64,000 nt of DNA from Vicinamibacterales bacterium (GCA_038919385.1 JBCKZH010000002.1:6868-70867), one strand, 5' to 3'; positions 1 to 44,120 are shown, counted from the stretch's first letter. Notes: generated from the letters alone by a model not told the origin. Translations and numbers: made by a program.

Positions 1-14
1 CGCGCGCGCTGGCC

Positions 15-1160
15 ATGGAGGCCGGCACCGACGTAGTCGTACTCCTCGGTAGCCGCGTGCTCAGCGGGACGTCGTCGACGCCGCTCGGCAACGCCATCGC
101 CGCGGCCGCACGACCCGAGGCCGCCACTCTCAGAACGGGCGACGACGAGTTCGTGGTGCGACGGCTCGCCACAGTGGACGATGCCACCGTGTATGCGGTC
201 GGCTCGGTCGGCATCGCCGCACGTGCGGCCGTCGCCGGCATGGCCTGGATGCTCGGCCTGATCAGCGTCGGTAGCCTGCTGCTGGCGGCAGCGGGTAGTG
301 CATGGCTCGCGCGCACGTTGAGTCGCCCGATCGCCGATCTCACCGCCAATCTGGCACGGATGGCGCACGAGCACCGGTTCGACGACGTGCTCACGCCGGC
401 CGGCGCCAGTCGGGAGTTGGACCAGCTGACCGAGGCCTTTGACGCGCTGCGCCAAAGCGTCAGGGCTGCCGAAACGGAAGCAGAGACCTCGTACCTGGGC
501 GTGATTGGCTCGCTGGCCACAGCCCTTGACGCCCGCGATCGCTACACCGCCGGCCACTCCGAGAGGGTCGCGACGCTGGCGGTTGCGATCGGGCAAGGGC
601 TGGGCCTGGCCGATCGCGAGCTCGACATGCTGCGCCTGGGGGCCCTGCTCCACGACATTGGCAAGATCGGCGTGCCTGACGCGGTCCTCAGAAAGGCCGG
701 TCGCCTCACCGACGAAGAGTTCGCGCAGATCCAACTCCATCCGACAATTGGCGCCAGGATTCTGGCACCGCTGCGCCTGCCGGCTGAAGTAATCGCCGTG
801 GTGGAATTGCACCACGAGCGGCCGGATGGACAGGGCTATCCCCACGGGCTGTCCGACGAACGGATCCCACGACTCGCCGCCATCGTCCACGGTGCTGACG
901 CGTTCGACGCCATCACGAGCGCCCGCTCCTATCGGCCCGGCCGTCCTGTTGCGGAGGCGCTTGACGAATTGAGGCGCCACGCCGGTACCGGCTTCAATCT
1001 CGCGGTGGTGCAGGTGATTACCGCGTTGCCGCTGTCGGCGCTCGAGGCCGCCACCGGCTCCGGGTCCGCGCTTGATGCCGGCCCTGGCGGCCGGCCTGCC
1101 GAAATCGTGCCCTTTCGGGCGCTGGCCGCCAGCGCCACGCGTCGGTCCCGGGGACGATGA
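15..1160 (+). CDS. HD-GYP domain (c-di-GMP phosphodiesterase-type) signalling protein with TM/HAMP-like N-terminal region; the 5' end may lie upstream of the window
   Basis: HDIGK and HHERPDGQGYP motifs; hydrophobic segment GMAWMLGLISVGSLLLAAAG; the frame is open back to position 3. Confidence 0.85.
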   Translation: MEAGTDVVVLLGSRVLSGTSSTPLGNAIAAAARPEAATLRTGDDEFVVRRLATVDDATVYAVGSVGIAARAAVAGMAWMLGLISVGSLLLAAAGSAWLARTLSRPIADLTANLARMAHEHRFDDVLTPAGASRELDQLTEAFDALRQSVRAAETEAETSYLGVIGSLATALDARDRYTAGHSERVATLAVAIGQGLGLADRELDMLRLGALLHDIGKIGVPDAVLRKAGRLTDEEFAQIQLHPTIGARILAPLRLPAEVIAVVELHHERPDGQGYPHGLSDERIPRLAAIVHGADAFDAITSARSYRPGRPVAEALDELRRHAGTGFNLAVVQVITALPLSALEAATGSGSALDAGPGGRPAEIVPFRALAASATRRSRGR

Positions 1161-2230
1161 ACAGGGCCGGCACGGTCACGGCGTCGGCTCTGGTGTTGCT
1201 ATTGCTCGCAACCGCGGCGGGAGCACAGGACGACCCGTCAACCAGTGGCCCGACCCGGCGACTCGCCGTTGACACGGTCACCGGCTACCAGGATTTTCTC
1301 GCTGAGGACTCCACCTGGCCGATCCAGTTCGTGGTCGATGCCTTCGTTGCCGTGGAACTGGCTCCTGGTTGGCAGGTGTCTGTGCGACCGGTCCTGTGGC
1401 GAGTCCAAGGCGAGTGGGAAACATTGCTCGACCAGGCGTCGATCCGTTATGAGACGCGCCGCCGTGCCAACTGGCGCGTTGAGGTCGGCAAGTTCCCCGC
1501 GCCGATCGGATTGGGCCTGACTGAGAACCGTGCGGGCAACAACGCCTCGGTGCTCTGGTGTCATCGGCCGTACTACTCGTCGGTGCCTTCGATCGGCGCC
1601 GGCTTGCCGCCGGTATCCCTCATTTCCGCCGTCTACCCGTTCGGAGCGCAGGTGGCGGCGTCAGGCACCAGGTGGGATGCGCGCGCAGCGCTTGTCGATC
1701 GCGGGCCCGTGGAGTACTGGAAGACGGGCGCCGGTGCGGCCCGAGGGCCGAACGGCATCGTCGGCGCCGGCATCACGCCACGCCAAGGGTTCCGGATCGG
1801 CGCGGCCGGCGCCTGGGGTCGGTACGCGAACGCCACGCCTGACCGAACGGCGTTGGGCTATACGACCATCAACGCCGAGACCGAATTCGCGTTCGGCTAT
1901 TCGCGGCTGAGCGGGGAGTGGGTGCGCAGTCGCTTCGACGCCCCGGAGGGCTCACGGACGTTCGAGGGGTGGACCGCTCAGGCGCAGCAGACCGTGACAC
2001 CGAGGGTCTTCCTGCACAGCCGTGTGACGACGGTCCGCTCGCCGGCCGGTGCCGAGTTGCCGGCCGTCGCCACCGTTCGCCGCTCTTTGTCCGTCGACTC
2101 GACGTTTGGCTACCGTGTCGATCCAGAACTGACCGTGCGCGTGGGACATGCCGCGATCCGCGCGTTCGGAAGGCCGCGCCTCGACCACCAGCTGGGGGTG
2201 TCAGTCATCTGGACGCGACGGTGGTGGTGA
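1157..2230 (+). CDS. secreted, possibly outer-membrane beta-barrel, hypothetical protein
   Basis: ATGA overlap with the upstream gene; signal peptide ALVLLLLATAAGAQD; aromatic-rich alternating pattern; C-terminal aromatic residues. Confidence 0.6.
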   Translation: MNRAGTVTASALVLLLLATAAGAQDDPSTSGPTRRLAVDTVTGYQDFLAEDSTWPIQFVVDAFVAVELAPGWQVSVRPVLWRVQGEWETLLDQASIRYETRRRANWRVEVGKFPAPIGLGLTENRAGNNASVLWCHRPYYSSVPSIGAGLPPVSLISAVYPFGAQVAASGTRWDARAALVDRGPVEYWKTGAGAARGPNGIVGAGITPRQGFRIGAAGAWGRYANATPDRTALGYTTINAETEFAFGYSRLSGEWVRSRFDAPEGSRTFEGWTAQAQQTVTPRVFLHSRVTTVRSPAGAELPAVATVRRSLSVDSTFGYRVDPELTVRVGHAAIRAFGRPRLDHQLGVSVIWTRRWW

Positions 2231-2246
2231 CCGCGCCGGGTCGTTC

Positions 2247-2390
2247 TCATCGCGAATGCTCCATCTCGGTGGCGGGTTTGAAGGTCAACGCCACGCCGTT
2301 GATGCAGTAACGAAGACCCGTGGGCCGCGGACCGTCGTCGAAGACATGGCCCTGGCGGCGTGTGACGAATGTCGCGTGGTGAGGGTAGGA
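2247..2390 (-). pseudogene. msrB: 3' fragment of methionine-R-sulfoxide reductase MsrB
   Basis: Only the C-terminal [26 protein letters not shown] block is present; no N-terminal part and no start codon. Confidence 0.5.
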
Positions 2391-2397
2391 TACGCCT

Positions 2398-2874
2398 GTG
2401 AAGGGCACGGACTTCGACGAACTCGCGTTCTTTCGCGCGATCGTGATCAGCGGCGCTCGAGCCTTGCTCATCGGCCGGCGAGCCCTCGTCGTGCTCGGGC
2501 TGCCGGTGCTCACCGCCGACTACGATTTCTGGCTGCACAGCGACGATATCGAGGCGTTCAACGAGGCCGCCAGCGCCTTCGACCTTCAGCCGTCGTTCGA
2601 TGCCGGCACCGCCCGGCGCCGTGGCCGCTACGTGCTGGAGAACGACGAACGCGTCGATGTCCTGGTCGCGCGGTCGGTGCCGACCGTCGAGGGGCAGTCG
2701 GTAACCTTCGACGAGCTGTGGGCCGCGCGTGAGCTGGTGCCGCTGACCGATGATGTGTCTGTCGCGTTGCCGAGCGTTGCTGGCCTGATCCTGACGAAGC
2801 GTTTCGCGACCAGGCCCAAGGACGCCGAAGACATCCGACTGCTGGAAGTGCTCCGCACGGAGCGTGAACGATGA
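2398..2874 (+). CDS. minimal nucleotidyltransferase-fold (MNT-like) protein
   Basis: GTG start; G-x(n)-DYDF motif ([14 protein letters not shown]), as in small NTase-fold proteins. Confidence 0.5.
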
Positions 2875-3095
2875 GCCAAGGTCTCTCGGACGCGGCGAGG
2901 GCACAAATTGACGCGCTAAGCGAACGCCGCCTCTCTGCCGCGGAAGTGCGCGCCTACCTCGCGACGCCGATGTCAGAGGCTGAACGTGCCGAGATTGTCG
3001 ACCTCGCGCGGTGGTTTCAACAGCGCTACCCAACTGGAGCCGAACGGCTGGCCTACGTGCGGCGGGCGTACGCGCGCTGGGCGCGACGAGGCTGA
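2871..3095 (+). CDS. small helical hypothetical protein, translationally coupled to the MNT-like gene
   Basis: ATGA overlap with the upstream ORF; 74 aa; no recognised motif. Confidence 0.4.
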   Translation: MSQGLSDAARAQIDALSERRLSAAEVRAYLATPMSEAERAEIVDLARWFQQRYPTGAERLAYVRRAYARWARRG

Positions 3096-3176
3096 TCCTG
3101 GCGTGACTCCGGGCGCAGGCGCTAAACGGCCCACACGATCGGTGGAACGTTCTGGCAACGACTGCATCAACATGGT

Positions 3177-4021
<845 letters not shown>

Positions 4022-4553
4022 GTGCCGACTCCCTGCTTGAGCGTGCGTCGCGCGATCTGGTCGGCCCGTGCCGCCTTCTCCAGCAGTGTCCCAAGCGACG
4101 GGATCTCGTTGTCCCACTCGATCAGGGTCGGTGTCGCACCGAAGCGGGCCACAGCGTGCGTGTACAAGTCCCACGCCGCCTCGGCGACCCTCGTGCTGTG
4201 GGTGTCGATGAGCACATCGTGTCCCGGCTGCGATTCATCTTCTTCCGCCGTAAACCCGCCCAGATGGAGCTCCCGCACGGCGTGTGCGGGCAGTCCCTCG
4301 AGATAAGCCACCGCGTCGTAGCCCATGTTGTGAGCACTCAGGCAGACGTTACTGACGTCACACAGCAGCTGGCACCCGCAGCGATCCACCAGCTCGCTTA
4401 GGAACTGCACCTCGGTCATCGTTGACCCGGTGAAACCCAGGTAGCCCGACGGGTTCTCCAGCAGGAACGGACGACCCAGGCCGTCCTGCACCTCCTGAAG
4501 GTGGCGGATCACGACGGCCAGCGTCTCCGCGGTGTACGGCAGCGGCAACAGGT

Positions 4554-4623
4554 CGTATTAGCGGCCTCCCCGGGTCAACATAAGGGCCGCTTCTCAGACC
4601 CAGTGCCCATGAACCAGCCACAG
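4554..4623 (+). repeat. 70-bp structured mobile-element terminus, copy A (solo)
   Basis: Identical base-for-base to 8035-8104; contains the hairpin AGCGGCC-n18-GGCCGCT; abuts truncated genes on both sides. Confidence 0.9.
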
Positions 4624-5333
4624 CGCAACGGCGTGTCGCGCTGGGTTCCCTGTGCACCGGCGGTTATGCGCTGGCCAAGGCCGGCTTGCTGGACAAGTAC
4701 AAGGCGGTGATCCACTGGGAGAACCTGTCGGCGCTGCGCGAAGAGTTTCCACGCGTCTCCTTCTCCGAGCAGCTGTTCGTGATCGATCGGGACCGTTACA
4801 CGTGCAGCGGCGGCGTGGCGCCGTTGGACCTGATGCTCAACATCATCAAGAACGACCTGGGGCGCGACATCGCGCCGATGATCTCCGAGCAGTTCATCCT
4901 GGACCGCATCCGCAACGAACATGACCGCCAGCATGTGCCGCTGCAGGCGCGGGTCGGCCTGTTCCACGAAAACCTGATCGAGGCCGCCGCGCTGATGCAG
5001 GCCAACATCGAAGAGCCGCTGTCGCTGGACGAGATCGCCCACCTGGTGGGCGTGTCGCGGCGCCAGATCGAACGCCTGTTCAAGCGCTACGTCGGCCAGG
5101 TGCCGACCCGGTATTACCTGGACATGCGGCTGCGCCGCGCCCGCGAGTTGCTGCTGCAAACCTCGATGTCCGTCATGGAAATCGCCGTCGCCTGCGGCTT
5201 CCAATCGCCACCGCATTTCTCCAAGTGCTACCGCAGCCTGTTCGGCCAATCGCCCAGCGCCGAGCGGCAGAGCAGCCGGCAGGGCACGGTGGCGGGCGGG
5301 TCGGCGAAGGTGGCGCAGCTGCAGGCGGCTTAA
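4624..5333 (+). pseudogene. GlxA-family (DJ-1/PfpI + AraC HTH) transcriptional regulator, 5'-truncated
   Basis: Homology starts at LGSLCTGGYALAKAGLL directly after repeat A; the C-terminal AraC HTH is intact (GFQSPPHFSKCYRSLFGQSP). Confidence 0.8.
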
Positions 5334-5538
5334 CGGAACGGCGGGTCGGCGGGCGACGTTCCTGCCAGGGCGCAGACCGCGCAAAGCAAGGCCTTGTTCG
5401 GCCGATCCGAAACCAACCGGCCGGGCTGCCACGCTGTTCCCGACCCACGCGCAAAATGGTCCGGCGTTGGCCTGCTTCCTGTCCCTGAGGGCGACCATCG
5501 ACGAGCATTTCTGTCAGGTCGGGGATGTGGAGAGGCTG

Positions 5539-6519
5539 ATGCAACGACGTTCCATTCTTTCCATCGCAGGCATTGCCGCGCTCGGCGCCGCAATGCCGCT
5601 GTTGGCACAACCGGCCAAGGTTTGGCAGGTCGGCGTTCTGTCGAACAATCCACGTCCTGCCAACGGTGCTGCCCCAGAGGCGCTGCGGCAAGCGCTGGCT
5701 GCACTTGGGTACGTCGAAGGGACCAATATTGCCTATGCGAACCGCTGGACGGACTTTGACAGCAGCCGACTCCCTGCGTTGGCTGCCGAGCTGGTTGGCC
5801 TGAAGGTCGATCTGATTGTGGCCCTGGGCAGCCCTGCCGTTGAGGACACCAAGAAAGCCACCGCAACGATTCCCATCGTCATCGCGGGCGCCGGCGATGC
5901 GGTGGGCGTGGGCCTGATTGCGAGCCTGGCCCGCCCGGGCGGCAATGTCACCGGCATCACCGATCTGGGAACCGAACTCAGTGCAAAGCGTCTTGAATTG
6001 CTCAAGGAGATGGTGCCCAAGGCCTTGCGCGTCGCCATGATCTGGAATTCGGAGGACCGCTCGATGACGTTGCGCTACCGGGAGACCGAGCGTGCGGCGC
6101 GGCTGCCGCGCATTGTCGTCCAGCCGCTCGGTGTACGCGCACCGGATGACTTCGAGGCGGCGTTCTCGGCGATGAAGCGGGACTGCCCGGATGCGCTTTT
6201 CATGGTATCGGACGCGCTCACCACGCTGAACCGGAAACGAGTCCTTGAGTTTGCAACGACCAACCGTATTCCGGCCACGTACGAACGCGGCGACTTGGTG
6301 AAGGACGGCGGGCTGATGTCGTACGGAGCGGACGTGAATGACAATTTTCGGCGCGTGGCGTTCTATGTGGACAAGATTCTCAAGGGTGCAAAGCCGGCAG
6401 ATCTGCCGGTTGAGCAGCCAACCCGGTTCTACCTGCGCATCAACCTCAAGACTGCCAAGGTGCTCGGGCTGACCATCCCGCAGACGCTGTTGCTGCGCGC
6501 CGATCAGGTGATCGAATGA
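5539..6519 (+). CDS. ABC transporter substrate-binding protein (the family with GGNVTG and a C-terminal PxxLLxRADxVIE motif)
   Basis: Signal peptide MQRRSILSIAGIAALGAAMPLLAQ; LARPGGNVTGI; TIPQTLLLRADQVIE. Confidence 0.8.
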   Translation: MQRRSILSIAGIAALGAAMPLLAQPAKVWQVGVLSNNPRPANGAAPEALRQALAALGYVEGTNIAYANRWTDFDSSRLPALAAELVGLKVDLIVALGSPAVEDTKKATATIPIVIAGAGDAVGVGLIASLARPGGNVTGITDLGTELSAKRLELLKEMVPKALRVAMIWNSEDRSMTLRYRETERAARLPRIVVQPLGVRAPDDFEAAFSAMKRDCPDALFMVSDALTTLNRKRVLEFATTNRIPATYERGDLVKDGGLMSYGADVNDNFRRVAFYVDKILKGAKPADLPVEQPTRFYLRINLKTAKVLGLTIPQTLLLRADQVIE

Positions 6520-6560
6520 ATCCGGTCACTCCAAAGCATCACCCATCGGCTGCGGCCGGT

Positions 6561-6974
6561 TCACGGCAACAGTTGAAAAGCCTTGCGCGACTTCAACCGG
6601 TAGGCGGAAAAGCCGCGCCGGTCCAATGTGAACACCGCATCGCATCCGATTTCTTCTCCAAGCGCGACCAGCGTGGCATCGGCATAGTCCATCGGCACGT
6701 CGCGATACTTTTCCATCAGCGCGGCAACGCGCAGGAGACTGGTGTGCGACGCCGGAACCAGGACGAACGCCCCGCGCAACATGAACTCAAGGCACTGCTT
6801 TTGCGCCTGCCAGCGCGGCCCCACCAGATGCAGGGTCTCGGTCATCACCGCCTCGGTGGTGACGATGCCGCCGCTCCAGCCTTCGAGCACCGCCACGCAG
6901 TCGGCGTGCCGGCGCTCGCTGCGATCCACCAGCGCGACGAACGCGCCGGTGTCGAGCAACAAGTTACGCGCCAC
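6561..6974 (-). CDS. vapC: PIN-domain toxin VapC
   Basis: LLLDTGAFVALVD N-terminal acidic motif; overlaps the upstream RHH gene. Confidence 0.85.
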   Translation of the reverse strand: MARNLLLDTGAFVALVDRSERRHADCVAVLEGWSGGIVTTEAVMTETLHLVGPRWQAQKQCLEFMLRGAFVLVPASHTSLLRVAALMEKYRDVPMDYADATLVALGEEIGCDAVFTLDRRGFSAYRLKSRKAFQLLP

Positions 6975-7215
6975 GGCGCAAGCGGGCGGTCAAATGTTCG
7001 CGGTGCCGCTGGCCCAGATCGGGCACGCCGCTTTGCACCGTGCCGAGCAGGTCGCGCACGCGTTCGATCGGACGGGTCACGGCAGGCTCGGCATCGAGAA
7101 ATTGGTCCAGGGCAAGGCGCACCACGTCCGAGCGCTTGCGCTTCAAGCGCTTGGCCGAGCGCTCCAGTTTGCCGGCCAGCGCTGCGGGTAGCCGCAGCGT
7201 CAATTGGGATTCCAT
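6964..7215 (-). CDS. vapB: ribbon-helix-helix antitoxin VapB
   Basis: MESQLTLRLPAALAGKLE RHH N-terminus; 11-nt overlap with vapC; ATTGCAAT / CCTTGCAAT repeats in the promoter region 7240-7270. Confidence 0.75.
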   Translation of the reverse strand: MESQLTLRLPAALAGKLERSAKRLKRKRSDVVRLALDQFLDAEPAVTRPIERVRDLLGTVQSGVPDLGQRHREHLTARLRRGA

Positions 7216-7511
7216 CGGTGCTCTCCGGGTGTTTACAGGTGCGAGTGCCTTGTATTGCAATGCCTTGCAATGGGTTGCGCATGGCGAAGCCGAGGCAACT
7301 CAATGCGCCGACGCCGAATTCTCCTCGCCGCCTGCGCCGGTGTGCCCGCCCTTCGTGGGCCGCGCATCAGCGTACTTGGCAATCAAGGGGCAACGGCATA
7401 AGATGACGGAGGAGGTGCTTGCCCATCGAAGTCGTTTGTTGCAAGAAGCATATCCATCGTTTGTCAATGCGCCTCCGACGAAGAGTGTGTCATGTTCACA
7501 AGGAGATTCAA

Positions 7512-7832
7512 ATGCCAAAGTATCTGCTTCAGGTCAACTATGTCGGTGACGGGGTCAAGGGACTGCTGAAGGAGGGCGGCACGAGCCGCCGCGTTGCTGC
7601 AGAGCGTGCCATCAAATCCCTCGGTGGCAGTCTTGAATCCTTTTACTTTGCCTTTGGCGACACCGATGCCTTTGTCATTGGCGAGGCACCGGATCATGCA
7701 AGCATGGCGGCGCTGGCCTTGACGGTCACTGCCAGTGGCGCCGCCACGGTCAAGACGACCGTGCTGATGACTCCGGAAGAGGTCGACGCGGCGGCGAAGA
7801 AGACGCCCGTTTATCGGCCCCCTGGGCAGTAA
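7512..7832 (+). CDS. GYD-domain protein
   Basis: AGGAG 7 nt upstream of the ATG; MPKYLLQVNY...FGDTDAFVI pattern typical of the GYD family. Confidence 0.75.
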   Translation: MPKYLLQVNYVGDGVKGLLKEGGTSRRVAAERAIKSLGGSLESFYFAFGDTDAFVIGEAPDHASMAALALTVTASGAATVKTTVLMTPEEVDAAAKKTPVYRPPGQ

Positions 7833-8034
7833 CGCCCGGGGACGTTCTGGCTGACTTGCGGCGTGCATGATTTTTAATCTTGTCGCGCATGAGCCAGAGG
7901 CATGTCGCCTGACGACAACCCAGGGTCGCTAATCTGCCTGCGACGCCCCTGAGGGGACCGTACGATTCCCCGGGTACTTTCGCCCTGCTCGGACCACGAC
8001 CGTGGGCCGGCCTGGCCAGACCCCGACGATAGGC

Positions 8035-8104
8035 CGTATTAGCGGCCTCCCCGGGTCAACATAAGGGCCGCTTCTCAGACCCAGTGCCCATGAACCAGCC
8101 ACAG
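8035..8104 (+). repeat. 70-bp structured mobile-element terminus, copy B (adjacent to the 3' end of the transposase)
   Basis: Identical to 4554-4623. Confidence 0.9.
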
Positions 8105-8705
8105 GGCACATCAACGCAGGGCCCATTATGACGTGCGACGCCTTGGCGTCAAGATCGGTGAGGCCTTCTCGCTTCGGTCGCGCGAGCGTTCGGCACAGCT
8201 CCGGCCGACCCCATCGCCAAACAATGGACGCGTGGAGTAGGTATGCAGCGCGACCGGTTCGGTTCAGCAGGCGCTCGGCTGGCGATCGTCGTCGCCGTCG
8301 AGCGGCAACGGCGGGGCGCGCGCGGGGCGCATCACCGGCACCTCGTCCGGCAGGCCCAGATGACGCAGGATGCGCAGGATCACGGCCGTCTCTCGAATCA
8401 GCGCCACCAACGTCAGACGGCCTGGGCAGCGCGGACAGGCCAGGACATCAAACCCGAAACTTCGCTGCATCAGGTCCGCCCACCCACGATTGCGTGACCG
8501 CACACTGTCAGGGCCCCTGTCGTCGGCGCACGCCGCCGCCTCGGTCTCCCCCTTCGCTCCACCGGCGACGGACACCGGGGAGACAATGCCTTTCCGCCAT
8601 GCGGCCCGCGGCGCCAACACCCCGTGGTACAGCACCAGATTGATCCGCGGGCGCGGTGTCAGGGCCGCAAGGCGCTCCAACAACTCCACCGGGTCGAACA
8701 CCAAG

Positions 8706-8746
8706 CCGGGGTCCCCGCCGCGCGTTTCCTGCGCGGTGGGGTGGAG
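8706..8746 (+). repeat. 41-nt hairpin mini-element, copy 1 (inside the transposase ORF)
   Basis: CCGGGGTCCCCGCCGCGCGTTTCCTGCGCGGTGGGGTGGAG; adds HPTAQETRGGDPGL between THL and VFDP. Confidence 0.85.
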
Positions 8747-9293
8747 GTGGGTCGTCCCGTCGGTCCACCGCCGGCGCAGTTCCAGCACGGCCTTGCCATC
8801 GGGCGTCAATTGCAGCCGATCCTGTCCGACCGGCGGACGCAGGGCATACCGGCACAACCGTTCCAGGCGGTCGCGAGCGCCAGCCGGTGCGACAATTCCC
8901 GCGTGGAGATCGAACCCATGCTGGCGGGCGTGCCACCGGCCGAGTGGCGGCGGGTCAGGAACGTCGATGGCATCGCCCCATCGGCGCACCGGCACGCCCG
9001 CGCGCACGCCGAGGGCCGCGACGCCCCGCACGGAGGCGGCCGCAAGGCCCGCCAGGGTCGGCGCCTCTTCGGCGTACCGATCCGGCGCGTCGAACCCTTC
9101 GCTGCCATCTGAAACGCTACGCCGGGCCAGTAACTTCTCGATGCGCCGCTCAATGGTGGTGAGCAGCAAGGTGAGGTCGTCTGCGCCCATCGGCTCCACC
9201 GGACAAAATCGCACGACGCCCGCGCCATCGGGGGCGAACACGCCGTCCATCACGAGCGCGTGAATGTGCACGTTCAGATTCAGCGCCGCACCG

Positions 9294-9334
9294 CCGGGGT
9301 CCCCGCTGCGCGGACTGTGCGCAGTGGGGTGGGA
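9294..9334 (+). repeat. 41-nt hairpin mini-element, copy 2 (inside the transposase ORF, at a frameshift site)
   Basis: CCGGGGTCCCCGCTGCGCGGACTGTGCGCAGTGGGGTGGGA; C-to-T and G-to-A changes at paired stem positions. Confidence 0.85.
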
Positions 9335-9506
9335 AGCGCTGGACGATGGCCACGGCACCACCGCGGCCGTCGGCCCCGTCACGGCCACGGGCATGGCGGC
9401 GGAGCCAGCCGAGCACGGCGCGCACGTAGACGGCCACGAGCGCTCGACAGAGCTCGTGATCCCACGCCAGCACGTACCGAATGCGCGGCGGCAGACTCAG
9501 TACCCA

Positions 9507-9547
9507 CTCCACCCCACCGCGCAGAGTCCGCGCGGCGGGGACCCCGG
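9507..9547 (-). repeat. 41-nt hairpin mini-element, copy 3 (opposite orientation, inside the transposase ORF)
   Basis: Reverse complement reads CCGGGGTCCCCGCCGCGCGGACTCTGCGCGGTGGGGTGGAG; adds AGVPAARTLRGGVE between VPVRQ and WVLS. Confidence 0.85.
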
Positions 9548-10123
9548 CCTGCCGGACCGGCACTGCAGGGAAGATGTGATCGACCAGGTGAGCCGCCCGA
9601 TCGGTCATGCGGCGGCCACCGCAACTGGGGCATATCCGCGGCCCTTGCACGAGAACGGGACCAGCCGATCGAGACGGCAGCTGGAGCACCGGAACCTCGC
9701 GAAGCCCGCCGCCAGACAGCCGCACGCCAGGAAGTCGCGAAACTCCTGCTCCACAAAGCGCGGCAAGCCCTGGCCATCGCGCATGCCGGCGGCCTGGACA
9801 CGAAAGGTTTCGAAGTGATCGCGCACCAGTTGATGCAGGGCACCCTGCTCGGGCTGGCGCGGCCGATAGACGGCGGAGGCGGTGGCCACGCCGCCAAGAG
9901 GCGCAAGGGCCGTGCCTGACGAGTCACCCCTGTAGCGTCAACGACTTGCGTGGTGGCCCCGCCCCGGTGATCGCAGCAACTGCGTTCACAGGCATGAGGA
10001 TGCGGCGCAGTATCTGCTACGCCGGCCGCGTTACGTGGCCGGCGCCGGGGTCGGCGACTATCGCTTCGCGAGCATCGTGCAGGGGGCGTGCGCGCACGCA
10101 GCGCACGTTGAGGCGGCACGCCG

Positions 10124-10423
10124 CTACGCTGCGGTCCCCGCCCACGGCTTGATCCTTCGCAAGGCGCTGGCGAGCCCCTTCGCCGCCACCTCGCTGTCGT
10201 AGGCCGCCTGCGCTCGAAGCCAATAGCCGTTTGACAGACGGAAAAACCGGCAGAGCCTCAGATCGGTGTCGGCCGTAATCGCGCGCCTGCCCGATACAAT
10301 CTCGCCGATGCGCTGGGCGGGCACACCAATCTCCTTGGCCACACGGTACTGCGTGAGTTCCATCGGGATCAGGAACTCCTCGATCAGCAGCTCGCCTGGT
10401 GTCACGGGCTTCAGTGGTGCCAT
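10124..10423 (-). CDS. higA: HigA-type XRE-family antitoxin, with no adjacent HigB
   Basis: PGELLIEEFLIPMELTQYRVAKEIGVPAQRIGEIVSGRRAITADTDLRL; only 22 nt separate it from the upstream gene. Confidence 0.8.
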   Translation of the reverse strand: MAPLKPVTPGELLIEEFLIPMELTQYRVAKEIGVPAQRIGEIVSGRRAITADTDLRLCRFFRLSNGYWLRAQAAYDSEVAAKGLASALRRIKPWAGTAA

Positions 10424-10445
10424 GAGCGTTCTCCCCTAGCCTAGG

Positions 10446-10976
10446 CTAACCCTCGACGGCCACTCCGAGGCCATCGGCGATCCGATTTACGAACGCAAAG
10501 TAGCTGACAATCGCACACGCGTCGTGAATGGCGCGGTCCGTGTAGCCGGCGGCGCGCAGCGACGCAATGTGGCTCGCAGTCACGGCCCTCGGGGTCTTGG
10601 TCAGCACGTCGGCGTAGGTCAGCAGTGCCTGTTCGGCGGCGCTGAGGTGGGGCGAGACGACGTCGGATTGTAGGTGGTTGAGCAGTGCGTCCTGATCACC
10701 AGCGGCGATGCCGTCTTTCGTGAGAATGGCACGGAGTCCCGCCCCGTGATGGTGCAGTCAATAGTGGCACTGGTTCAGGGCGGACACCCGGACGCCGAGC
10801 AGCTCGCGCTCGCGGCGGGACAACGGTCCGGCGCGATGCATCAACTGCTTATACAGCTCGTAATGCTGTCGCATCACGGCGGGATGAACAGCGTGAATCT
10901 GGATGATGTTGTCGGGGTCCGCCACCCGATCCTCTGGCGCCAGCATCTCAGGCCGTAGGTACGGAATGAAGGCCAT
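10446..10976 (-). CDS. AhpD/carboxymuconolactone-decarboxylase-family peroxidase-related protein with an in-frame TGA (10758-10760) at the second position of the CxxC motif; Sec candidate or pseudogene
   Basis: Frame reads ...SALNQCHY-TGA-LHHHGAGLRAIL...YFAFVNRIADGLGVAVEG-TAG; 72 codons before and 103 codons after the TGA; TGATG coupling with the upstream peptidase gene. Confidence 0.7.
10730..10748 (-). promoter_or_regulatory. candidate bacterial SECIS-like stem-loop
   Basis: Minus-strand CACGGGG-CGGGA-CUCCGUG: 7-bp stem (one G-U pair), G-rich 5-nt loop, starting 9 nt after the UGA. Confidence 0.4.
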
Positions 10977-11569
10977 CAGTCTCTCCGCGCCGGCGCGCGC
11001 TGGCCGCGCCGCATCAACGCTTCCAGTCCTTCGGGCGATCGGGCCACGTGGCCGGTCAGGTTCTCTCGCCCTTGTGGCGTAATCAAAATCACATCCTCGG
11101 TGAAAACGGCGACCTGGAGGTCGTGGTTGTAATACCAGGGTTCGACGGTGATGACCATGCCGGGCGCCAGCGGCTCGTCATCGAGTGACGGGTCACCGGA
11201 CGACAGCCCAAGGTGGTGGCCGAAGAATAGTCCGGTTTGCATGTATGCGCGCGCCGCCTCGGGAACGGCGCTCAACCCAGCACGCTGCGCCTCCCGCAGG
11301 GTCACGCCCGGCCTCAGGGCAGCGATCAGGGCGTCGGACACCCCGACCTCCATCGTGAGAATGGCACGTTGCTCCGGCGTGAACCTGCCAGAGACCGGAA
11401 ATGTCCGGCCAGTGTCGCTGACGTAGCCGTCGAGTTCGCATCCCACGTCGAAGATCACCAGCTCGCCGTTCTTCATGTGCCGATTGCGGCGATCGTAGTG
11501 GGTCGCCAGAATGCGCCACGGCCACAGCGAGTTGGGACCCGACTTGATGATCGACGCAAACGCCCACCG
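10976..11569 (-). pseudogene. M24-family Xaa-Pro aminopeptidase, 5'-truncated (catalytic C-terminal domain only)
   Basis: Homology AFASIIKSGPNS...GELVIFDVGCELDGYVSDTGRTFPV...; an in-frame stop at 11570-11572 leaves no N-terminal domain. Confidence 0.75.
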
Positions 11570-11683
11570 TCAGATCCTAACCTGTCAGGCGTGGACATGG
11601 TGCGGCGCAGCCTCGAAGCCGACGACGAACCTTCACAGGCCGCCGTGGCGCTCTTGGTCGAGTCTGAAAAACGAGCAGCGTAA

Positions 11684-12619
11684 CTATCTATCCATGAGGG
11701 GAATCTGCTTCGGTGGCTGGATTTGTTCGATCACTTTACGAACGACACGACGGTTGCTGATTTGGCCGGATTCACTGATGAAGGATTCGACGAATAGCAT
11801 GACTTTCAAGAGATCGCCCTTGGCGAAGGATCGTTCTCGCCGCTGAACTTCACCGAAGAACTCTTCGTCCTCGATGTCAGCGTAGAAGTTTCTATCGCCA
11901 TCAGAAAACGTCCACGTCAGACGCTCGTCGAATGACGGCTTGACAATCTGGATGACAGTCTCAAACTCGCCACCGGTTACGCGAGTTTCCTGAGGCTCTG
12001 TGACACTAAAGGCTGGCAGCTCGGCCTTTGTTACCCGTTCAATCACCGCACCACCAATTGATTCCTTTGTTTCGAATGATTCGATTCCTTGCCGTTCCAC
12101 GGGGGCTACGATTTCCTTGGCCGCATTTCGAACAGCTTGATCGTTGTACAGCTTCGCCACTTCTGGCGAAACTTCGATGTATTCGACCTCGATCTTATGG
12201 GTCACGGTTAGGTCGATCACGACCTCGATCCGAACATTGCCATCTTGGAGAGTCGTTACAGACTTCGGCTTCCGCCCCTTGAGCCACTTGATAAGGCCAA
12301 GGACTGATACGCCAGCCCCGCTAGCGAAGCCAAGAAGCGCGAGCAGGTTGATGGCGGCAGTAACGTTGTCCGACAGCAGAAGGGTCTTGGCCTGCTGGAT
12401 GACCGTGTGGACCAACTCCAGGTCAATACCAAACGAACCAGGCTTGAAGCCAGTTCGAACATTGACTTGAACTGTCGCCTTGTTCCCGTTTAAGACCTTA
12501 TTCGCTCGGTCACAAAGCGTTCCGACTGCCATCAGGGCAGGCGCTAGATAGCGCACGTCCATCGTACCCTGTTCGAGCGCAGGTCCGTCGTATGCGATAG
12601 TCGCGTGGGCTTGGCTCAC
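11684..12619 (-). CDS. orphan 311-aa hypothetical protein on a low-GC islet, with one predicted central TM helix
   Basis: GTG start; visibly AT-richer codon usage than its neighbours; hydrophobic AAINLLALLGFASGAGVSVLGLIKWL; upstream TTGACC-17nt-TTTAAC. Confidence 0.6.
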   Translation of the reverse strand: MSQAHATIAYDGPALEQGTMDVRYLAPALMAVGTLCDRANKVLNGNKATVQVNVRTGFKPGSFGIDLELVHTVIQQAKTLLLSDNVTAAINLLALLGFASGAGVSVLGLIKWLKGRKPKSVTTLQDGNVRIEVVIDLTVTHKIEVEYIEVSPEVAKLYNDQAVRNAAKEIVAPVERQGIESFETKESIGGAVIERVTKAELPAFSVTEPQETRVTGGEFETVIQIVKPSFDERLTWTFSDGDRNFYADIEDEEFFGEVQRRERSFAKGDLLKVMLFVESFISESGQISNRRVVRKVIEQIQPPKQIPLMDR

Positions 12620-12746
12620 TGCGCTAGATTAGTACATTTACCAACGTCGAGCAACAAGGTTAAACGTATTCGTGACAGGTGGGTCAATTTTAACAGAAAT
12701 TCGAAGGAGCCCACTACCCGACCGTCGGCCAGGCCGACCGTCACCG

Positions 12747-13226
12747 CTAGGCGCCAAACTGTCGCAGGTGGTGATCGAGGTGCCGCCATTGCAGGGCCTG
12801 CCATTCCGCGGTCGAGAGAGGGCCGAAGAACGGATGGGGCTGCGTCGTAAGGCCCGTCGGGCCGACGGTACCGAAGCGCTGCACCAGCATTCGCAGCGCG
12901 GCCTTTTCCTGCTCGAAGTTGCGGGCGTCGGTGATTCGGAACTCCGGCGCGGTGGGCATGCTGTGCTTCCACGGGGCGGCCCTCAGCAGCCGCCGCTTCG
13001 CCATCCTGCCGAACAGGAAACCAATCAGACTGCGCTTGAGTGGCAGTTCACCGAGCGCGACTCGCAGCGGCTGCTGGCAGTGCGCGAGCATTTGTGCGAC
13101 CGACATCTTGCCCCACTGGCGCGGGGACTCTGGTTGCAGACGGTCCAGGCGCGCCAGCATGGCGTCGAGGCCCTGCGGATCGAACAGTGAGTCAGCCATG
13201 CCTGAAGGTTGACAGCCGCCAGCCAC
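12747..13226 (-). CDS. DinB-superfamily protein (DUF1569-like); the start may be the second Met at 13199
   Basis: WGKMSVAQMLAHC...HPFFGPLSTAEWQALQWRHLDHHLRQFG. Confidence 0.75.
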   Translation of the reverse strand: MAGGCQPSGMADSLFDPQGLDAMLARLDRLQPESPRQWGKMSVAQMLAHCQQPLRVALGELPLKRSLIGFLFGRMAKRRLLRAAPWKHSMPTAPEFRITDARNFEQEKAALRMLVQRFGTVGPTGLTTQPHPFFGPLSTAEWQALQWRHLDHHLRQFGA

Positions 13227-13252
13227 GCCGTCAACTCAATCGAGCCGCCGCG

Positions 13253-14503
13253 TCACCGGACGGTTCGGAAGAACGCGCGCACGTCGTCCACGAACAATTG
13301 CGGTTGCTCGAACGCGGCGAAATGGCCGCCGCGTGGCATCACCGTCCAGCGCGTGATGTTGTAGCGTGCTTCGAGCCACCGGCGCGGCGACCAGATGATC
13401 TCCTTCGGAAAGTCGGCGCACGCCGTCGGCACCTCGACACGGCGCGGGCCGCCGGTCACGGGTGCGGCGTGGCGGCTTTCGTAGTAGATGCGCGCCGATG
13501 ACGCCGCCGTCTGCGTCGCCCAGTACAGCGTGATGTTGGTCAGCAGCTCGTCCTTCGTGAAGATCGTCTCGGGGTTCCCGCCGCAGTCGCACCACGTCCG
13601 GAACTTCTCGACGATCCAGGCGGCCAGCCCGATCGGCGAATCGTTCAGCGCGATCCCGATCGTCTGCGGTTTCGTCCCCTGAATCTGCTGATAGCCGGTT
13701 TCCTCCGCCTGGAATGCCTGCCGCACCTTGAGGCGTTCCTTCTCGGCGTCGGACAGGCCGGCGTTCGGGTCGCCGCCGGCCGGCGCCGCGCCGGTGCACA
13801 TGTTGAGGTGCAGCCCCGCGACGTGCGACGCGTCGTTGAGTGCGATCTGCGTGCCGATGATCGCGCCCCAGTCGCCGCCTTGCACGCCGTAGCGCTGATA
13901 GCCGAGGCGCGCCATTAGCTTCGCCTTGATGGCGCCGATGCGGGCGGGGTCGTAGCCTGGTCCGCGCGGCTTCTCCGAGAACGCGAAACCGGGGATCGAT
14001 GGAATGACGACGTCGAAGGCGTCGTCGGAGCGGCCGCCGTGGGCCGCCGGATCGGTCAGCGGGCCGATGATCTTGGCGAATTCGACGAACGATCCGGGCC
14101 AGCCGTGCGTGATCAGCAGCGGCAACGCGTTGGGCTGCCGCGACCGCCGGTGGATGAAATGGATGGACAGACCGTCGATGGTGGTCGTGAACTGTTCGAA
14201 GCGGTTCAAGGCGCGCTCCTGCGCGCGCCAGTCGAATCGGTCGCGCCAGTACGTCACCAGCTGCTTGAGATACGCGACGTCGGTGCCGTAGGTCCAGGCG
14301 TCCGTCCCGCCGTCACCCGGCAGCGCGTCCGGAATTCGCGGGTTCTTGAGACGGGCCTTGAGGTCAGCCAGCACCGCGTCTGGCACGCGGATGGTGAACG
14401 GGCGGATCGCAGTGTCGGCGCCCGCCGTCGACTGCGCGCCGCCGACCGCCGGCACCGCGGCGAGGAGGCCGGCGAGGACAATCCTTCGCGCGTAGCTGGA
14501 CAT
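13253..14503 (-). CDS. epoxide hydrolase (EHN N-terminal domain + alpha/beta hydrolase), secreted
   Basis: Signal peptide; FTIRVPDAVLADLKARL...; HGWPGSFVEF. Confidence 0.85.
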   Translation of the reverse strand: MSSYARRIVLAGLLAAVPAVGGAQSTAGADTAIRPFTIRVPDAVLADLKARLKNPRIPDALPGDGGTDAWTYGTDVAYLKQLVTYWRDRFDWRAQERALNRFEQFTTTIDGLSIHFIHRRSRQPNALPLLITHGWPGSFVEFAKIIGPLTDPAAHGGRSDDAFDVVIPSIPGFAFSEKPRGPGYDPARIGAIKAKLMARLGYQRYGVQGGDWGAIIGTQIALNDASHVAGLHLNMCTGAAPAGGDPNAGLSDAEKERLKVRQAFQAEETGYQQIQGTKPQTIGIALNDSPIGLAAWIVEKFRTWCDCGGNPETIFTKDELLTNITLYWATQTAASSARIYYESRHAAPVTGGPRRVEVPTACADFPKEIIWSPRRWLEARYNITRWTVMPRGGHFAAFEQPQLFVDDVRAFFRTVR

Positions 14504-14512
14504 GGAACCGAT

Positions 14513-14941
14513 CTATATCAGCCAGGGCCGCAGTTCTTCCAGCAACATCTCAATCACATCGTCGTCGGTCAGCTGCACCAGCGGGTTGCTGCCCTTGATG
14601 GATCGATCCGACTGGATGATGCGGCTGCCACGCACGCGCGTGATGGTGACGAGGGGCTGGGGCGGGTCCGCCGTCGTGTCAAGCTCCATCTCGATGCTGT
14701 CGTCGCGCTGCCGCTCGGACTGCAGCCGCACGCCGCCGGCGGGCGTCATCACCTCGAAGTGCAGGCCCTCGGACTTGAGGATGTTCGCGAACATCTTGAA
14801 CACCGGGATCGCGGCGCCCTCGAGGAAGGTCTCGTAGGCCGTGGTCGCCTCGGCCACGCGGCCGCGGCGCTCGGCCTGATCCCGTCGCGCCTGCTCGATG
14901 GCGGTCTTCACACGTTTCCGGACAAGAGCCACATCAGCCAT
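14513..14941 (-). CDS. hypothetical protein
   Basis: 142-aa ORF with coding-like composition; no recognised motif. Confidence 0.5.
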   Translation of the reverse strand: MADVALVRKRVKTAIEQARRDQAERRGRVAEATTAYETFLEGAAIPVFKMFANILKSEGLHFEVMTPAGGVRLQSERQRDDSIEMELDTTADPPQPLVTITRVRGSRIIQSDRSIKGSNPLVQLTDDDVIEMLLEELRPWLI

Positions 14942-14961
14942 TAAGTGATCTTACTGCCTTC

Positions 14962-15051
14962 GGGGCTTGCGACCTGCGACCTGCGGCTTGCGGCTTGAAG
15001 GACAGGGCGCAAGCCCCAAGCCGCAGGCCGCAAGCCGCAAGTCGCAAGCCG
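14962..15051. repeat. inverted arrays of the CAAGCCG heptamer family (CGGCTTG-type units, loop, then CAAGCCG-type units)
   Basis: ggggcttgcgacctgcgacctgcggcttgcggcttg ... caagccccaagccgcaggccgcaagccgcaagtcgcaagccg; intergenic between two minus-strand genes. Confidence 0.85.
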
Positions 15052-15052
15052 A

Positions 15053-16240: not shown

Positions 16241-17305
16241 TCAGATCTCTCGAAGACGCTGTGAGATGCGCGCCAGGTCGCTCAGCAGCGCATAAGCGGT
16301 TTGCGTCAGGCCGCCGGAACGTTGGACGATACCGACCTGGCCGAGCAGGTCGGTGTTGAGATAGAGCGCGTTCTCGAGATCCTCGAGGTTGGCGAGCGGA
16401 TCGCCGCGGTCGAGCACCTCCGGCTCCACGCGCGCGCGAACCTTGCCGCCCTGCCGCGTGGCCGAGGCGACCAGCCTGATGCGCTTGTTGCGCGACATCG
16501 CATCGCGCACGTCGAGCCCGGTGACGTCGCGAATGCCCGTGCGCGCCACGTGGTGGGGCGTCATGGCGCTGCCCATCAGCACGTTCACCAGCGCCGCGGT
16601 CTTGGCGGCGGCATCCCAGCCATCGACATCGAGCGAGGGGTCGGCTTCGGCGATGCCGCGCGCCTGCATCGCGGCGACCGCGAGGTCGAACTCCTTGCCG
16701 CGTTCGAGTTCCGAGAGGATGAAGTTGCAGGTGCTGTTGATCACGCCGCGGAAGCCGTCAATCACGATGGCCGGCATGGTTTCGCGAACCAGGTTGAAGA
16801 CCGGCACCCCGTCCATCACCGCGCCTTCGAAGAAGAAGATGCGGTCCACCGACTCGGCGAGGGCCTCGAGCTCGTGATACGCGAATGCCGCCGGGCCCTT
16901 GTTGGCGGTAACGACGTGGGCCCGTCCCTCGAGCGCGGCGCGCACATGCGACACGGCCGGCTCGCCGCGATCGATGTCCAGCACCGTCGTCTCGATGCAC
17001 ACCAGCCGTCCGTCGCCCGCTTCATCAGCCATGGCATCGGCCACCTGGCGAATCACGTCGATGCCGCTGTGCTCGCGCGGCTCCGCGTCGAGGCGATCCA
17101 GCGACTGGCTCGCCTCGACGGTAGCCATGGCGCGCGCCACGTTGATGCCCGCGAGGTCGATCACCGACCCGTGATGCTTGGTCGAAATACCCACGACCTT
17201 CCAGGTGAAGTCGAGGCGGTCGGCGGTTTCATCGAGCAGGCGCACAAAGCGCCGCGCGACGTTGCCGAACCCAATCAGGACGAGCGCCAGTTCGGGCGGG
17301 TTCAT
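16241..17305 (-). CDS. homoserine dehydrogenase-family oxidoreductase
   Basis: N-terminal GFGNVARRF Rossmann motif; TANKGP; EGAVMDGVPVFN; DPSLDVDGWDAAAK. Confidence 0.8.
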   Translation of the reverse strand: MNPPELALVLIGFGNVARRFVRLLDETADRLDFTWKVVGISTKHHGSVIDLAGINVARAMATVEASQSLDRLDAEPREHSGIDVIRQVADAMADEAGDGRLVCIETTVLDIDRGEPAVSHVRAALEGRAHVVTANKGPAAFAYHELEALAESVDRIFFFEGAVMDGVPVFNLVRETMPAIVIDGFRGVINSTCNFILSELERGKEFDLAVAAMQARGIAEADPSLDVDGWDAAAKTAALVNVLMGSAMTPHHVARTGIRDVTGLDVRDAMSRNKRIRLVASATRQGGKVRARVEPEVLDRGDPLANLEDLENALYLNTDLLGQVGIVQRSGGLTQTAYALLSDLARISQRLREI

Positions 17306-18459: not shown

Positions 18460-18493
18460 GCCCGGCAGTTTATACTTTCTCTCGACGTTACGG

Positions 18494-19294: not shown

Positions 19295-19298
19295 GGCT

Positions 19299-43179: not shown

Positions 43180-44046
43180 CTACTGACGCGGCTGCCAGTT
43201 CACCACCATCGTGATCGGCTGCGTGCTGCCCCGCTGGTACGGCACGATGGCGAGGAATCTGCCGCCTCGGGAGGGTTCGAAGTCGAGCCACCCGTCGCGC
43301 GGCAACTCGAACAACGCCATCGGCGCGCCGACCCGCGGCGCCGGCGAGGTTTGCACCGGCACCGCCATGAGTTTCCCGTCGCCGCCGACATAAAACAACT
43401 CGCGGCCATCGCGCGACCAGCGCACCGCGCTGCCACCCCCGGGCGAGACCGTCAGCGCCGATGCCGGCTCGGCGAGGGTGGCCGTCAACACATCGAAGCG
43501 CCCTGATGGATTCGACGCATAGGCAAAGGCCTTCCCGTCCGGCGACCACCGCACGCTGCTAAAGAGAAAGCGGTTCGCGGGAATCAACGGCTGGACATCC
43601 GCCGGCCGCGCCAGCGGCAGTGTAAAGGGCTGGAAGTTACCTGACGCCGATCGCTCGACGAACGCGAGCGTTGTTCCAGCCGGCGAGACGTCCATCGGCT
43701 GCTGCTGCCGGCCGGCCGGCCGAAGCTCCTCCTCGACGCCTGAGGCCAGGTCCTTCTTGTACAGGTGCGGCGATCCACCGCGATCGGCGACGAACACGAT
43801 GCCTCGGCCGTTTTTCAACCACACCGGGGTGACTTCGGTACGTGGATCGGATGTGATGCGCGTGTCGACATTCCTCTGCGGATCGGCGATCCAGAGATCC
43901 CACGAGCCGAGGCTCGGGTCAAGGCGGTCGAACCGCAGCCGCCCGTCGTCGGGAGACAACCTCGCGTCCAGGTAGGTGGCGGCGTCGCTCACCGTCGCGC
44001 CGATCCGGCCGGCTGCGAGGTCGATCCTTTGCGCGAGACGATAGTC
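43180..44046 (-). pseudogene. TolB-like WD40 beta-propeller C-terminal region, 5'-truncated at an element terminus
   Basis: Repeating SPDG/WSPDGK/SRDGREL propeller blades; the frame is open up to the repeat at 44047. Confidence 0.7.
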
Positions 44047-44120
44047 CGTATTAGCGGCCTCACCCGTGTGCCGCGGTGAGTCGACATAAGGTGCGTTGGA
44101 CTAAACCGCTTCGCGGTAAA
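44047..44120 (+). repeat. divergent third copy of the element terminus (opposite end type)
   Basis: Shares CGTATTAGCGGCCTC and TC(A/G)ACATAAGG with copies A/B; has its own nested hairpins (CTCACC...GGTGAG inside AGCGG...CCGCT). Confidence 0.7.

Follow-up and report, generated by a model that had tools for sequence, protein, structure and literature searches.

Does a pair of identical direct repeats around a few foreign-looking genes, lying next to an IS91-family transposase gene, mark a unit of DNA that was captured and moved by rolling-circle transposition? The question is raised by a stretch of 64,000 nucleotides from a Vicinamibacterales bacterium (GCA_038919385.1, JBCKZH010000002.1:6868-70867; hereafter the window, with positions counted from its first base), in which an earlier note had described two 70-bp termini bracketing a 3.4-kb cassette. 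We find it probable that the structure is the fossil of one IS91-family insertion sequence (IS), of the rolling-circle type with a histidine-hydrophobic-histidine (HUH) transposase, together with a stray fragment of its origin end, and not a capture device. The finding is mostly an ordinary one, and the capture story is unsupported.

The window holds exactly two copies of the 70-mer (CGTATTAGCGG...CAGCCACAG), at 4554-4623 (copy A) and 8035-8104 (copy B), both on the + strand, with no mismatches and at a spacing of 3,481 bp; 100 shuffles gave a chance expectation of none for such a pair. A third, partial copy of the repeat (93% over 28 nt) is found at 44037-44064. The identity of the two repeats had been reported correctly, and Pfam bore out the earlier gene list (a glxA-type regulator, a substrate-binding protein (SBP), vapBC, a GYD gene, the Y2 transposase and higA). 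We also agree that the repeat is the origin-type end, downstream of tnpA, of an IS91-family element, and that copy A is solo, lying between a truncated DUF692 gene and a truncated glxA-type gene. Both junctions are also spanned by contigs of other assemblies (L008, matching window 2060-7190 at 99.7%, and L007, matching window 6261-11285 at 99.9%), so the arrangement is not an assembly artefact.

The 70-mer is, however, not the terminus of the element. Contigs encoding the related transposases P0001 and P0002 (L001-L006) carry a transposase-only element and all read ...GAGGCCGCTAATACGGNCTATCGTC downstream of tnpA, with flanks that diverge only beyond this sequence; at least 13 independent Acidobacteriota copies, including full-length ones, end 10 bp outside the tip proposed earlier (...CGCTAATACGGNCTATCGTC). 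A search pattern that left out these last 10 bases retrieved six loci from GTDB genomes and seven from JGI metagenomes, and the 10 bases were present, with small variations, in all 13; the loci with related ends belong to Vicinamibacterales/Acidobacteriota. The terminal 10-mer co-varies with the subtype of the end module (GACAATAAGC in both diverged copies at locus L033), has accompanied a single IS type to four distinct flanks (L002, L003, L004 and L006), and is still recognisable as ..CTAATGCTTCCTATCGTC in the 65% relative L027, the motif ..TTCCTATCGTC being retained across relatives at 63-65%. For these reasons the 10-mer, GACGATAGNC, is best taken as element sequence and not target, which places the true terminus of copy B at 8025. 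The bases after the conserved ..TATCGTC vary (G, A, T, T, C, A, T, C, T, T, C, G, T), and the final GTC or CGTC of the end could be retained target sequence.

Counting backwards from this terminus with negative numbers, the blocks conserved across 11 ends (GACGATAGNCCGTATTAGCGGCCTC, GTCAACATAAGG and TTCTCAGACCCAG) span about 75 nt and fade at about -75. The tetranucleotides GGTC, GGCC and GTCC, which the earlier note had likened to GTTC-type targets, overlap the first C of the 70-mer (the bases immediately 5' being AGGT, AGGC and AGTC); they are internal bases in copy B and in the third copy, and DUF692 coding sequence in copy A. The L002-L006 contigs end just past the IS, and their left flanks were set aside as evidence for co-mobilised DNA in view of possible assembly effects.

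Placed on this scale, copy A spans -80 to -11, and the terminal 10 nt, with the invariant GACGAT block, are gone. Because this block is missing, copy A is not a duplicated functional origin, as had been suggested; a capture unit would have complete, cleavable origins at both repeats, and copy A has lost its tip. Its homology with copy B stops at -80/-84 on the inner side and at -10/-6 on the outer side. At the outer joint (4554..4556), which falls at about codon 109 of the DUF692 gene, the two sequences share three nucleotides of microhomology (ACG, read in the sense of tnpA), further matches lying within ACGRCCT: the IS reads ..CTAATACG|GCCTATCGTC, a relative's DUF692 gene ..CTGAACG|ACCTGCTGCC, and the window ..CTAATACG|ACCTGTTGCC. 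Judging from this alignment, the outer joint is an illegitimate microhomology fusion rather than an end of transposase type. At the inner joint, identity between the copies ends at 4623/4624, and the frame from 4626 is already native GlxA (..QRRVALGSLCTGGYALAKAGLL..); this joint lies 80 nt from the true end and meets the middle of glxA.

The repeats do not delimit the foreign DNA either. A full-length DUF692 protein (P0248), 94% identical to the window fragment, is encoded on 15 contigs with the same intact locus, in the order CoA-transferase, orf142, CMD-family gene, orf79, anti-sigma, extracytoplasmic-function (ECF) sigma, BufA1, MbnB/DUF692, HvfC_N/DUF2063, DoxX, DUF6789 and MerR, which is an operon of the bufferin type, encoding a ribosomally synthesized and post-translationally modified peptide (RiPP). 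When the relative's locus L019 was compared with the window by blastn, its positions 1-7946 aligned with 22977-14487 and 8221-8773 with 10995-10446 (both 83%), 10326-11187 with 4556-3694 (95%), and two further pieces with the window down to 3317 (96-99%). The DUF692 gene is intact in the L019 10326-11187 region, and the window has no counterpart of its first ~108 codons, of bufA1 or of the ECF sigma and anti-sigma genes. Indeed, 1,552 bp of L019 (anti-sigma, sigma, bufA1 and 5' DUF692) are swapped in the window for 5,889 bp (4557-10445), which hold higA, the IS, the GYD gene, vapBC, the SBP gene, the glxA fragment and 67 IS-derived bases. Synteny is lost at 4556/4557 and at 10445/10446, and neither 8104 nor 8025 marks a break. 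Since the non-syntenic block thus takes in the IS and higA, it is not a cassette bracketed by the repeats, as had been claimed, and it reaches 2.3 kb past copy B. On the right the block abuts the TAG stop of the conserved CMD-family gene, 22 nt before the higA ATG, and no higB was found at higA or at this joint.

The foreign look of the interval between the repeats was in part upheld: it is non-syntenic with L019 and some of its genes have a lower GC content at third codon positions (GC3), and the support from composition is mild. The GC content of 4624-8024 is 0.636, against 0.665 for the window, and the GC3 values of its five genes are 0.89, 0.74 (SBP), 0.82, 0.75 and 0.69 (GYD), against 0.84 +/- 0.04 for window genes. 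If a near-identical sister assembly is set aside, the best homologues of the SBP reach 65-72%, and those with names include one from a Betaproteobacteria bacterium and one from a Thermoanaerobaculia (Acidobacteriota) bacterium; the native-looking DUF692 protein, too, has proteobacterial top matches. No donor of the interval was found above 72% identity for the SBP, the sister assembly apart; exact vapC and 99% SBP matches occur only in sister assemblies, in the same context. The interval was not found as a unit elsewhere, and the one SBP homologue whose context was examined (P0126, 68%) has unrelated neighbours.

The surroundings of the block are themselves rearranged, with the tail of an msrB gene, a DUF2063::DoxX fusion that arose by deletion, a C-terminal fragment of an M24 peptidase and a low-GC gene, orf311. 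The last of these (11684-12619) is an open reading frame (ORF) of 311 amino acids (aa) with GC 0.53 and GC3 0.61 (window 0.665 and 0.84) and matches no Pfam family; the 3.5-kb stretch around it (10996-14486) has no counterpart in L019, and this is clearly foreign DNA beside the block studied here. On the other side, the bufferin remnant (3317-4556; DUF692', DUF2063'::DoxX' and DUF6789') matches L019 10326-12514 at 95-99% and carries two internal deletions, and the backbone beyond the block (10446-10995 and 14487-22977) matches at only 83%. This difference suggests a recent recombination patch, or a transfer from an L019-like lineage, followed by decay.

The transposase gene of the element that ends in copy B, here called IS B, is a pseudogene, with a frameshift and three palindromic inserts. 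PF14319 (1.8e-08) and PF04986 (8.9e-15) match two ORF pieces, and three-frame translation (8000-10130, -) places a 1-nt frameshift near 9630, within the CKGRG-CPSCGG motif. The repaired protein has 500 aa and is 78% identical to P0001 and 77% to P0002; 4,826 of its homologues bear both domains. It contains an HUH-like HIH motif (..NLNVHIHALV..), and in the catalytic-tyrosine region (LERLCRYALRPPV, window 8800-8850, -) a single Tyr was seen, compared with the Y-x3-Y of IS91, in a reading made by eye only; the relative L009 likewise shows a single Tyr by eye. The inserts (CCACCCCACYGCGCA-N5-CGCGCRGCGGGGACCCCGGC) lie two in one orientation and one inverted, and two of them, of 39 and 42 nt, are multiples of three and alone would not shift the frame. 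Further copies of the ~40-nt insert were found neither in the 64-kb window nor in 28 of 29 loci, the exception being the sister assembly L007, and the window holds no further tnpA.

IS B measures ~2.04 kb, of which the inserts make up 0.12 kb; the element of L001 is 1.83 kb long. In the relatives a hairpin and then a conserved box lie upstream of tnpA, and the window has a hairpin at 10020-10044 directly before the same box; because of this match IS B (8025 to about 10064) looks roughly full-length, its left terminus being approximate. The opposite end, reported missing earlier, is thus probably represented by this ter-side hairpin. The two ends are of functionally different type, a conserved origin block downstream of tnpA and an unrelated hairpin region upstream, and their palindromes are short. 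By its domains, its dissimilar ends and its origin-end-only derivatives the element can be assigned to the IS91 family. No integrase gene stands next to tnpA in L001-L006, L027, L028 and L032 (with transposases 59-78% identical in the seven tnpA-bearing contigs looked at) or beside IS B, and none was seen near any other copy, the sole one being a pseudogene (44250-44812) beside a solo end; since the relatives carry none, there is no reason to expect one beside the transposase, as the earlier note did.

The ter-hairpin motif of the relatives, GGTGGAGGCAACCC, is absent at IS B, and its single match in the window (61894) belongs to a separate small insert. That insert (61880-61965) lies inside a 566-aa ORF (60948-62648) and consists of a hairpin (GGCAACCCC-AAGAA-GGGGTTGCC) with CTCCACC, followed by a second hairpin; the motif is that of the ter-side hairpin in L001/L002-type IS91 elements, and the insert could be a very small repeat element or what remains of a ter end.

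In the origin-side tail, the predicted outward-facing promoter TTGACG-16-CATAAT (8152-8125) has 10 of 12 consensus matches, where 0.1 would be expected by chance; the next gene, GYD, is convergent with it, and no role in expression is evident. Both hexamers are also retained in the ~128-nt solo origin ends L010 (about 5750-5790) and L014 (about 600-640), in which the next gene past the tip, lying on the same strand, encodes a 1,065-aa SNF2-type helicase and a 108-aa helix-turn-helix (HTH) protein, respectively. These two solo ends might act as mobile promoters.

Structure in the end itself was looked for as well. The hairpin AGCGGCC-n18-GGCCGCT described earlier is present, and the structured terminus built upon it lacks support: the 80-nt ends, folded as single strands on both strands, do no better than shuffles (z -1.3 and -1.6), the hairpin is not conserved, and 11 related ends contain no covarying pair (RNAalifold -2.7 kcal/mol). 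Beyond a tiny tip hairpin, a structured terminus is thus unsupported. An Rfam scan of 4400-10500 at E <= 1 returned no known RNA, with a chance viral match only.

The inner edge of copy A gains its interest from other solo ends. Among the 13 loci found with the pattern, a full tnpA is present only in L032 and a partial one in L009 (tnpA carriers: one of the six GTDB loci, with the partial copy, and one of the seven metagenome loci), and the remainder are solo ends; together with the window these loci hold at least 11 solo origin ends of 32-129 nt. Each was aligned to the nearest full-length reference, the inner boundary being taken where homology stops. Boundaries lie at -80/-84 in copy A, -79 in L035, -83 in L031, -79 in L012, and -79 and -74 in two ends of L033 (L033b and L033c); those of the other nine ends fall between -32 and -63 or at -93, -127 and -129. 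That at least four of 13 breakpoints should share one 6-nt window has an estimated probability of 0.009 for a uniform spread along the 240-nt tail and of 2e-5 for one along the whole element. Solo origin ends thus outnumber full copies, and by these alignments at least four independent ones break at about -80, the breakpoint with which the inner edge of copy A coincides.

Pairs of related loci show exchange at the two edges of this ~80-nt module. L001 and L032 have 4.3 kb of ter-side flank and the IS in common (98-99%) and diverge immediately past the origin terminus, and L035 shares with the full-length L032 only the last 79 nt of the end and 696 nt of origin-side flank (99.5%), the sequence interior to -79 being a truncated Ser/Thr kinase gene. 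Because of these two comparisons, both module edges appear to behave as exchange points in natural populations. The conserved block of ~75-80 nt and the solo-end boundary also match the size of the minimal oriIS of IS91, whose final 82 bp are sufficient (PMC13181058).

The only other module-cargo-module layout seen is at L033, where two direct, diverged ~80-nt modules with tips (591-670 and 2685-2760) lie ~2 kb apart and enclose genes for an M48 peptidase and a GNAT protein. The same locus holds, at 397-670, a pair of inverted origin ends ~274 bp apart that resembles a MITE (a miniature transposable element with inverted repeats). Copy A was considered as a MITE too and rejected: it has no inverted partner, its flanks are non-contiguous genes, and the L033 pair is the only inverted one. 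In L009 (5905-6607) an origin tip of 39-41 nt is fused, inverted, to the middle of the transposase gene (residues ~290-495), which is an internal rearrangement of the element.

The history that we consider probable would run as follows. The IS would once have adjoined the glxA-SBP-vapBC-GYD genes within a mosaic island rich in toxin-antitoxin genes. While the transposase still worked, an ~80-nt copy of the origin end of IS B would have landed 3.4 kb away, inside glxA and in direct orientation, either by premature termination of rolling-circle transfer, as in IS801, or by recombination at a hot spot at -80. Later, a deletion between the ACG(R)CCT microhomologies would have taken the tip, the 5' part of glxA and the DNA up to DUF692 codon 109, destroying the bufferin operon, and decay of the transposase would have come last. 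The repeats today are inert, save as 70 bp of homology for a RecA-type deletion of the 3.4-kb interval.

Several points weigh against this history. No precursor state was found, neither an intact glxA beside the block nor a solo copy A with its tip, and two events are needed for copy A. A search for a ter-like tetranucleotide at the -80 edge gave nothing convincing. L035 lies at the same site as a full-length copy, which argues that at least some solo ends originate on the spot, through recombination or deletion at -80, and not as fresh short insertions. The window is explained equally well by a tandem duplication of 3,481 bp, with a novel joint between IS -80 and mid-glxA, plus one deletion, and the left (ter) end of the element is mapped only approximately.

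That tandem duplication is the best of the alternatives, and we regard it as unlikely. The 3,481 bp from mid-glxA to IS -80 would have undergone tandem duplication, or else circular excision and homologous re-integration, before a deletion from DUF692 to IS -11; these two events cover the perfect identity, the direct orientation and both joints, and -80 could be a recombination hot spot at the edge of a hairpin-rich, transposase-bound origin region. No remnant of the left duplicate exists, however, and duplication alone leaves unexplained why -80 recurs in solo ends away from full copies (L012, L031 and L033b).

More doubtful still is a second full-length IS that once stood at 4554, from which one deletion took the interior as far as mid-glxA and another the tip as far as DUF692. 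Most genomic IS801 fragments in Pseudomonas have been judged products of reorganisation and not of one-ended events (PMC3189936), and the surroundings here are full of gene fragments (the msrB tail, the DUF2063::DoxX fusion and the M24 fragment), but three events are required and a random deletion would be unlikely to stop at the recurrent -80. The tandem-duplication and two-copy histories fit the window alone about equally well; they fit the -80 recurrence less well unless -80 is a hot spot.

Rolling-circle capture, by which an IS91/ISCR-type element would have mobilised adjacent DNA through imprecise transposition and made 4554-8104 a transposase-made unit, is very unlikely and the weakest of the window histories, every testable property of a capture unit having failed. 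It can appeal to direct origin-end repeats around a non-syntenic interval, to L033 as a second locus with two direct diverged modules around the peptidase and GNAT genes, and to the variable region of ISCR1 on the oriIS side (PMC6218425). Set against these are a copy A that has no invariant terminal 10 nt and whose outer joint is a microhomology fusion within a gene, and a foreign block that continues 2.3 kb past copy B, to 10445; in IS91, IS801 and IS1294 the DNA carried along by one-ended transposition is that beyond ter, on the other side (PMC13181058, PMC3189936), tnpA is dead in cis, and the unit was not found at any other locus or genome searched.

That the ~80-nt module is a host repeat, of the kind of repetitive extragenic palindromic (REP) sequences, targeted by the transposase-bearing part, with copy A as an empty target site, is scarcely credible: solo modules do outnumber full copies and several are of a discrete ~80-nt length, but one IS type (L002-L006) carries an identical module beside four different flanks, the module subtype tracks the IS subtype, the terminal motif is kept in 63-65% relatives, and copy A is 100% identical to copy B yet tipless.

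The preferred history, a fossil IS with a stray origin-end fragment, has its nearest parallel in IS801, where 26% of trapped events were right-end miniature fragments of 229-679 nt and of discrete lengths, formed by premature termination and starting with a GAAC-like tetranucleotide (Bardaji et al. 2011; PMC3189936). Like IS801, the present element is a rolling-circle IS with distinct origin and terminus ends, has separate origin-end-only fragments that mark genome reorganisations, and occurs as full-length copies with broken transposase genes alongside fragments. Unlike IS801, the solo unit here is ~80 nt, no tetranucleotide is recognisable at its inner edge, copy A is tipless, and the system is known from sequence alone. 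With IS91 it shares a transposase with Zn-finger and Y2_Tnp domains, an origin end downstream of tnpA with subterminal palindromes, an upstream hairpin and an origin of ~80 bp; it differs in its ~500-aa transposase, which is probably only distantly related to that of IS91, in having no orf121, in the variable bases after its conserved end in place of CTTG/GTTC, and in its host, which belongs to Vicinamibacterales (Acidobacteriota) and not to Enterobacteria.

ISCR1, in complex class 1 integrons, likewise has variable DNA on the origin side and an outward promoter in the origin-side tail (POUT; PMC6218425). There, however, the duplicated sequence is the 3'-conserved segment (3'-CS) of the integron and not an origin end, and rcr is intact. 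In the window, GYD is convergent with the promoter. A eukaryotic parallel is offered by non-autonomous Helitrons, rolling-circle elements with short derivatives that have nothing but terminal sequence in common with the autonomous element and lie at junctions with unrelated gene fragments. Helitron derivatives keep both ends and are demonstrably amplified; the present lineage shows origin ends alone, in low copy number, and its mobility is putative.

A more far-reaching idea, which we hold to be improbable, is that the ~80-nt origin module is a discrete unit that leaves its parent through premature termination, or because a fixed site ~80 nt from the nick is cleaved or undergoes recombination, persists solo at junctions of unrelated DNA, and can be re-used in trans as a one-ended start. 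Direct module pairs, as in the window and L033, would then be a bacterial counterpart of non-autonomous Helitron-like capture units, and the ~128-nt ends L010 and L014 would double as mobile outward promoters.

The window structure is thus an inactive scar; the island in which it lies is rearranged and rich in toxin-antitoxin genes, and destroyed an operon for bufferin, a copper-binding RiPP. With the present results the origin end of an undescribed IS91-family lineage in Vicinamibacterales/Acidobacteriota is defined to the base for the first time, which aids annotation and avoids mistaking such ends for att sites or regulatory RNAs. Solo ends are the commonest trace of the lineage and break non-randomly at ~-80; if the break is enzymatic, it marks a second site recognised by the transposase. 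Elements of this kind are poorly described in the phylum. The recurrent ~80-nt solo module is the only part that might interest a specialist, and the locus as a whole serves as a worked example of direct repeats around 'foreign' genes that need a synteny check before capture is invoked.

Table 1. Features of the repeat pair, the IS and their surroundings, in window coordinates.
Feature	Position	Strand	Basis or remarks
3' part of DUF692/MbnB-type (bufferin bufB-like) gene	3835..4556	-	begins at ~codon 109
DUF692/MbnB fragment, domain match	3835-4548	-	Pfam PF05114, profile positions 104-262 only
Copy A	4554..4623	-	solo origin-end fragment, positions -80 to -11 from the true terminus
GlxA-type fragment (DJ-1 tail + AraC HTH)	4626-5333	+	Pfam
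Orphan ATP-binding cassette (ABC) substrate-binding protein (SBP; ABC_sub_bind)	5467-6519 (listed within the interval as 5539-6519)	+	Pfam
vapC (PIN)	6561-6974	-	Pfam
vapB (RHH)	6964-7260	-	Pfam
GYD protein	7419-7832 (listed within the interval as 7512-7832)	+	Pfam
Copy B with true terminus, ~80-nt origin (oriIS-type) module	8025..8104	-	terminus 8025 (GACGATAGGC|CGTATTAG...)
Outward-facing sigma-70-like promoter TTGACG-16-CATAAT (predicted)	8152-8125	-	origin-side tail, outside the 70-mer
IS91-family transposase pseudogene (Zn_Tnp_IS91 + Y2_Tnp)	8264-9889	-	Pfam, three-frame translation
Palindromic ~40-nt inserts in tnpA	8702-8746, 9293-9332, 9507-9551 (last inverted)		absent from all related transposase genes
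Ter-side region upstream of tnpA	10020..10064	-	8-bp-stem hairpin 10020-10044; possible left terminus GCGATAGTC 10056-10064
Orphan higA (HTH_3)	10124-10423	-	Pfam
Third copy, solo origin-end fragment of ~55 nt	44037..44091	-	tip intact (GACGATAGTC...), long-hairpin subtype; 92.7% identical to solo end L010
Integrase pseudogene beside third copy	44250-44812	+	Pfam; degraded

Two further kinds of repeat were seen in the window. Arrays of a 7-nt unit (GCCGCAA / CCGCAAG and complement) occur in both orientations in at least seven places, namely 14960-15074, 20616-20644, 47303-47360, 48906-48940, 50997-51078, 51588-51616 and 56765-56857. At 33949-35548, ten tandem copies of a ~165-nt unit, 62-73% identical, probably form the coding region of a repeat-domain protein.

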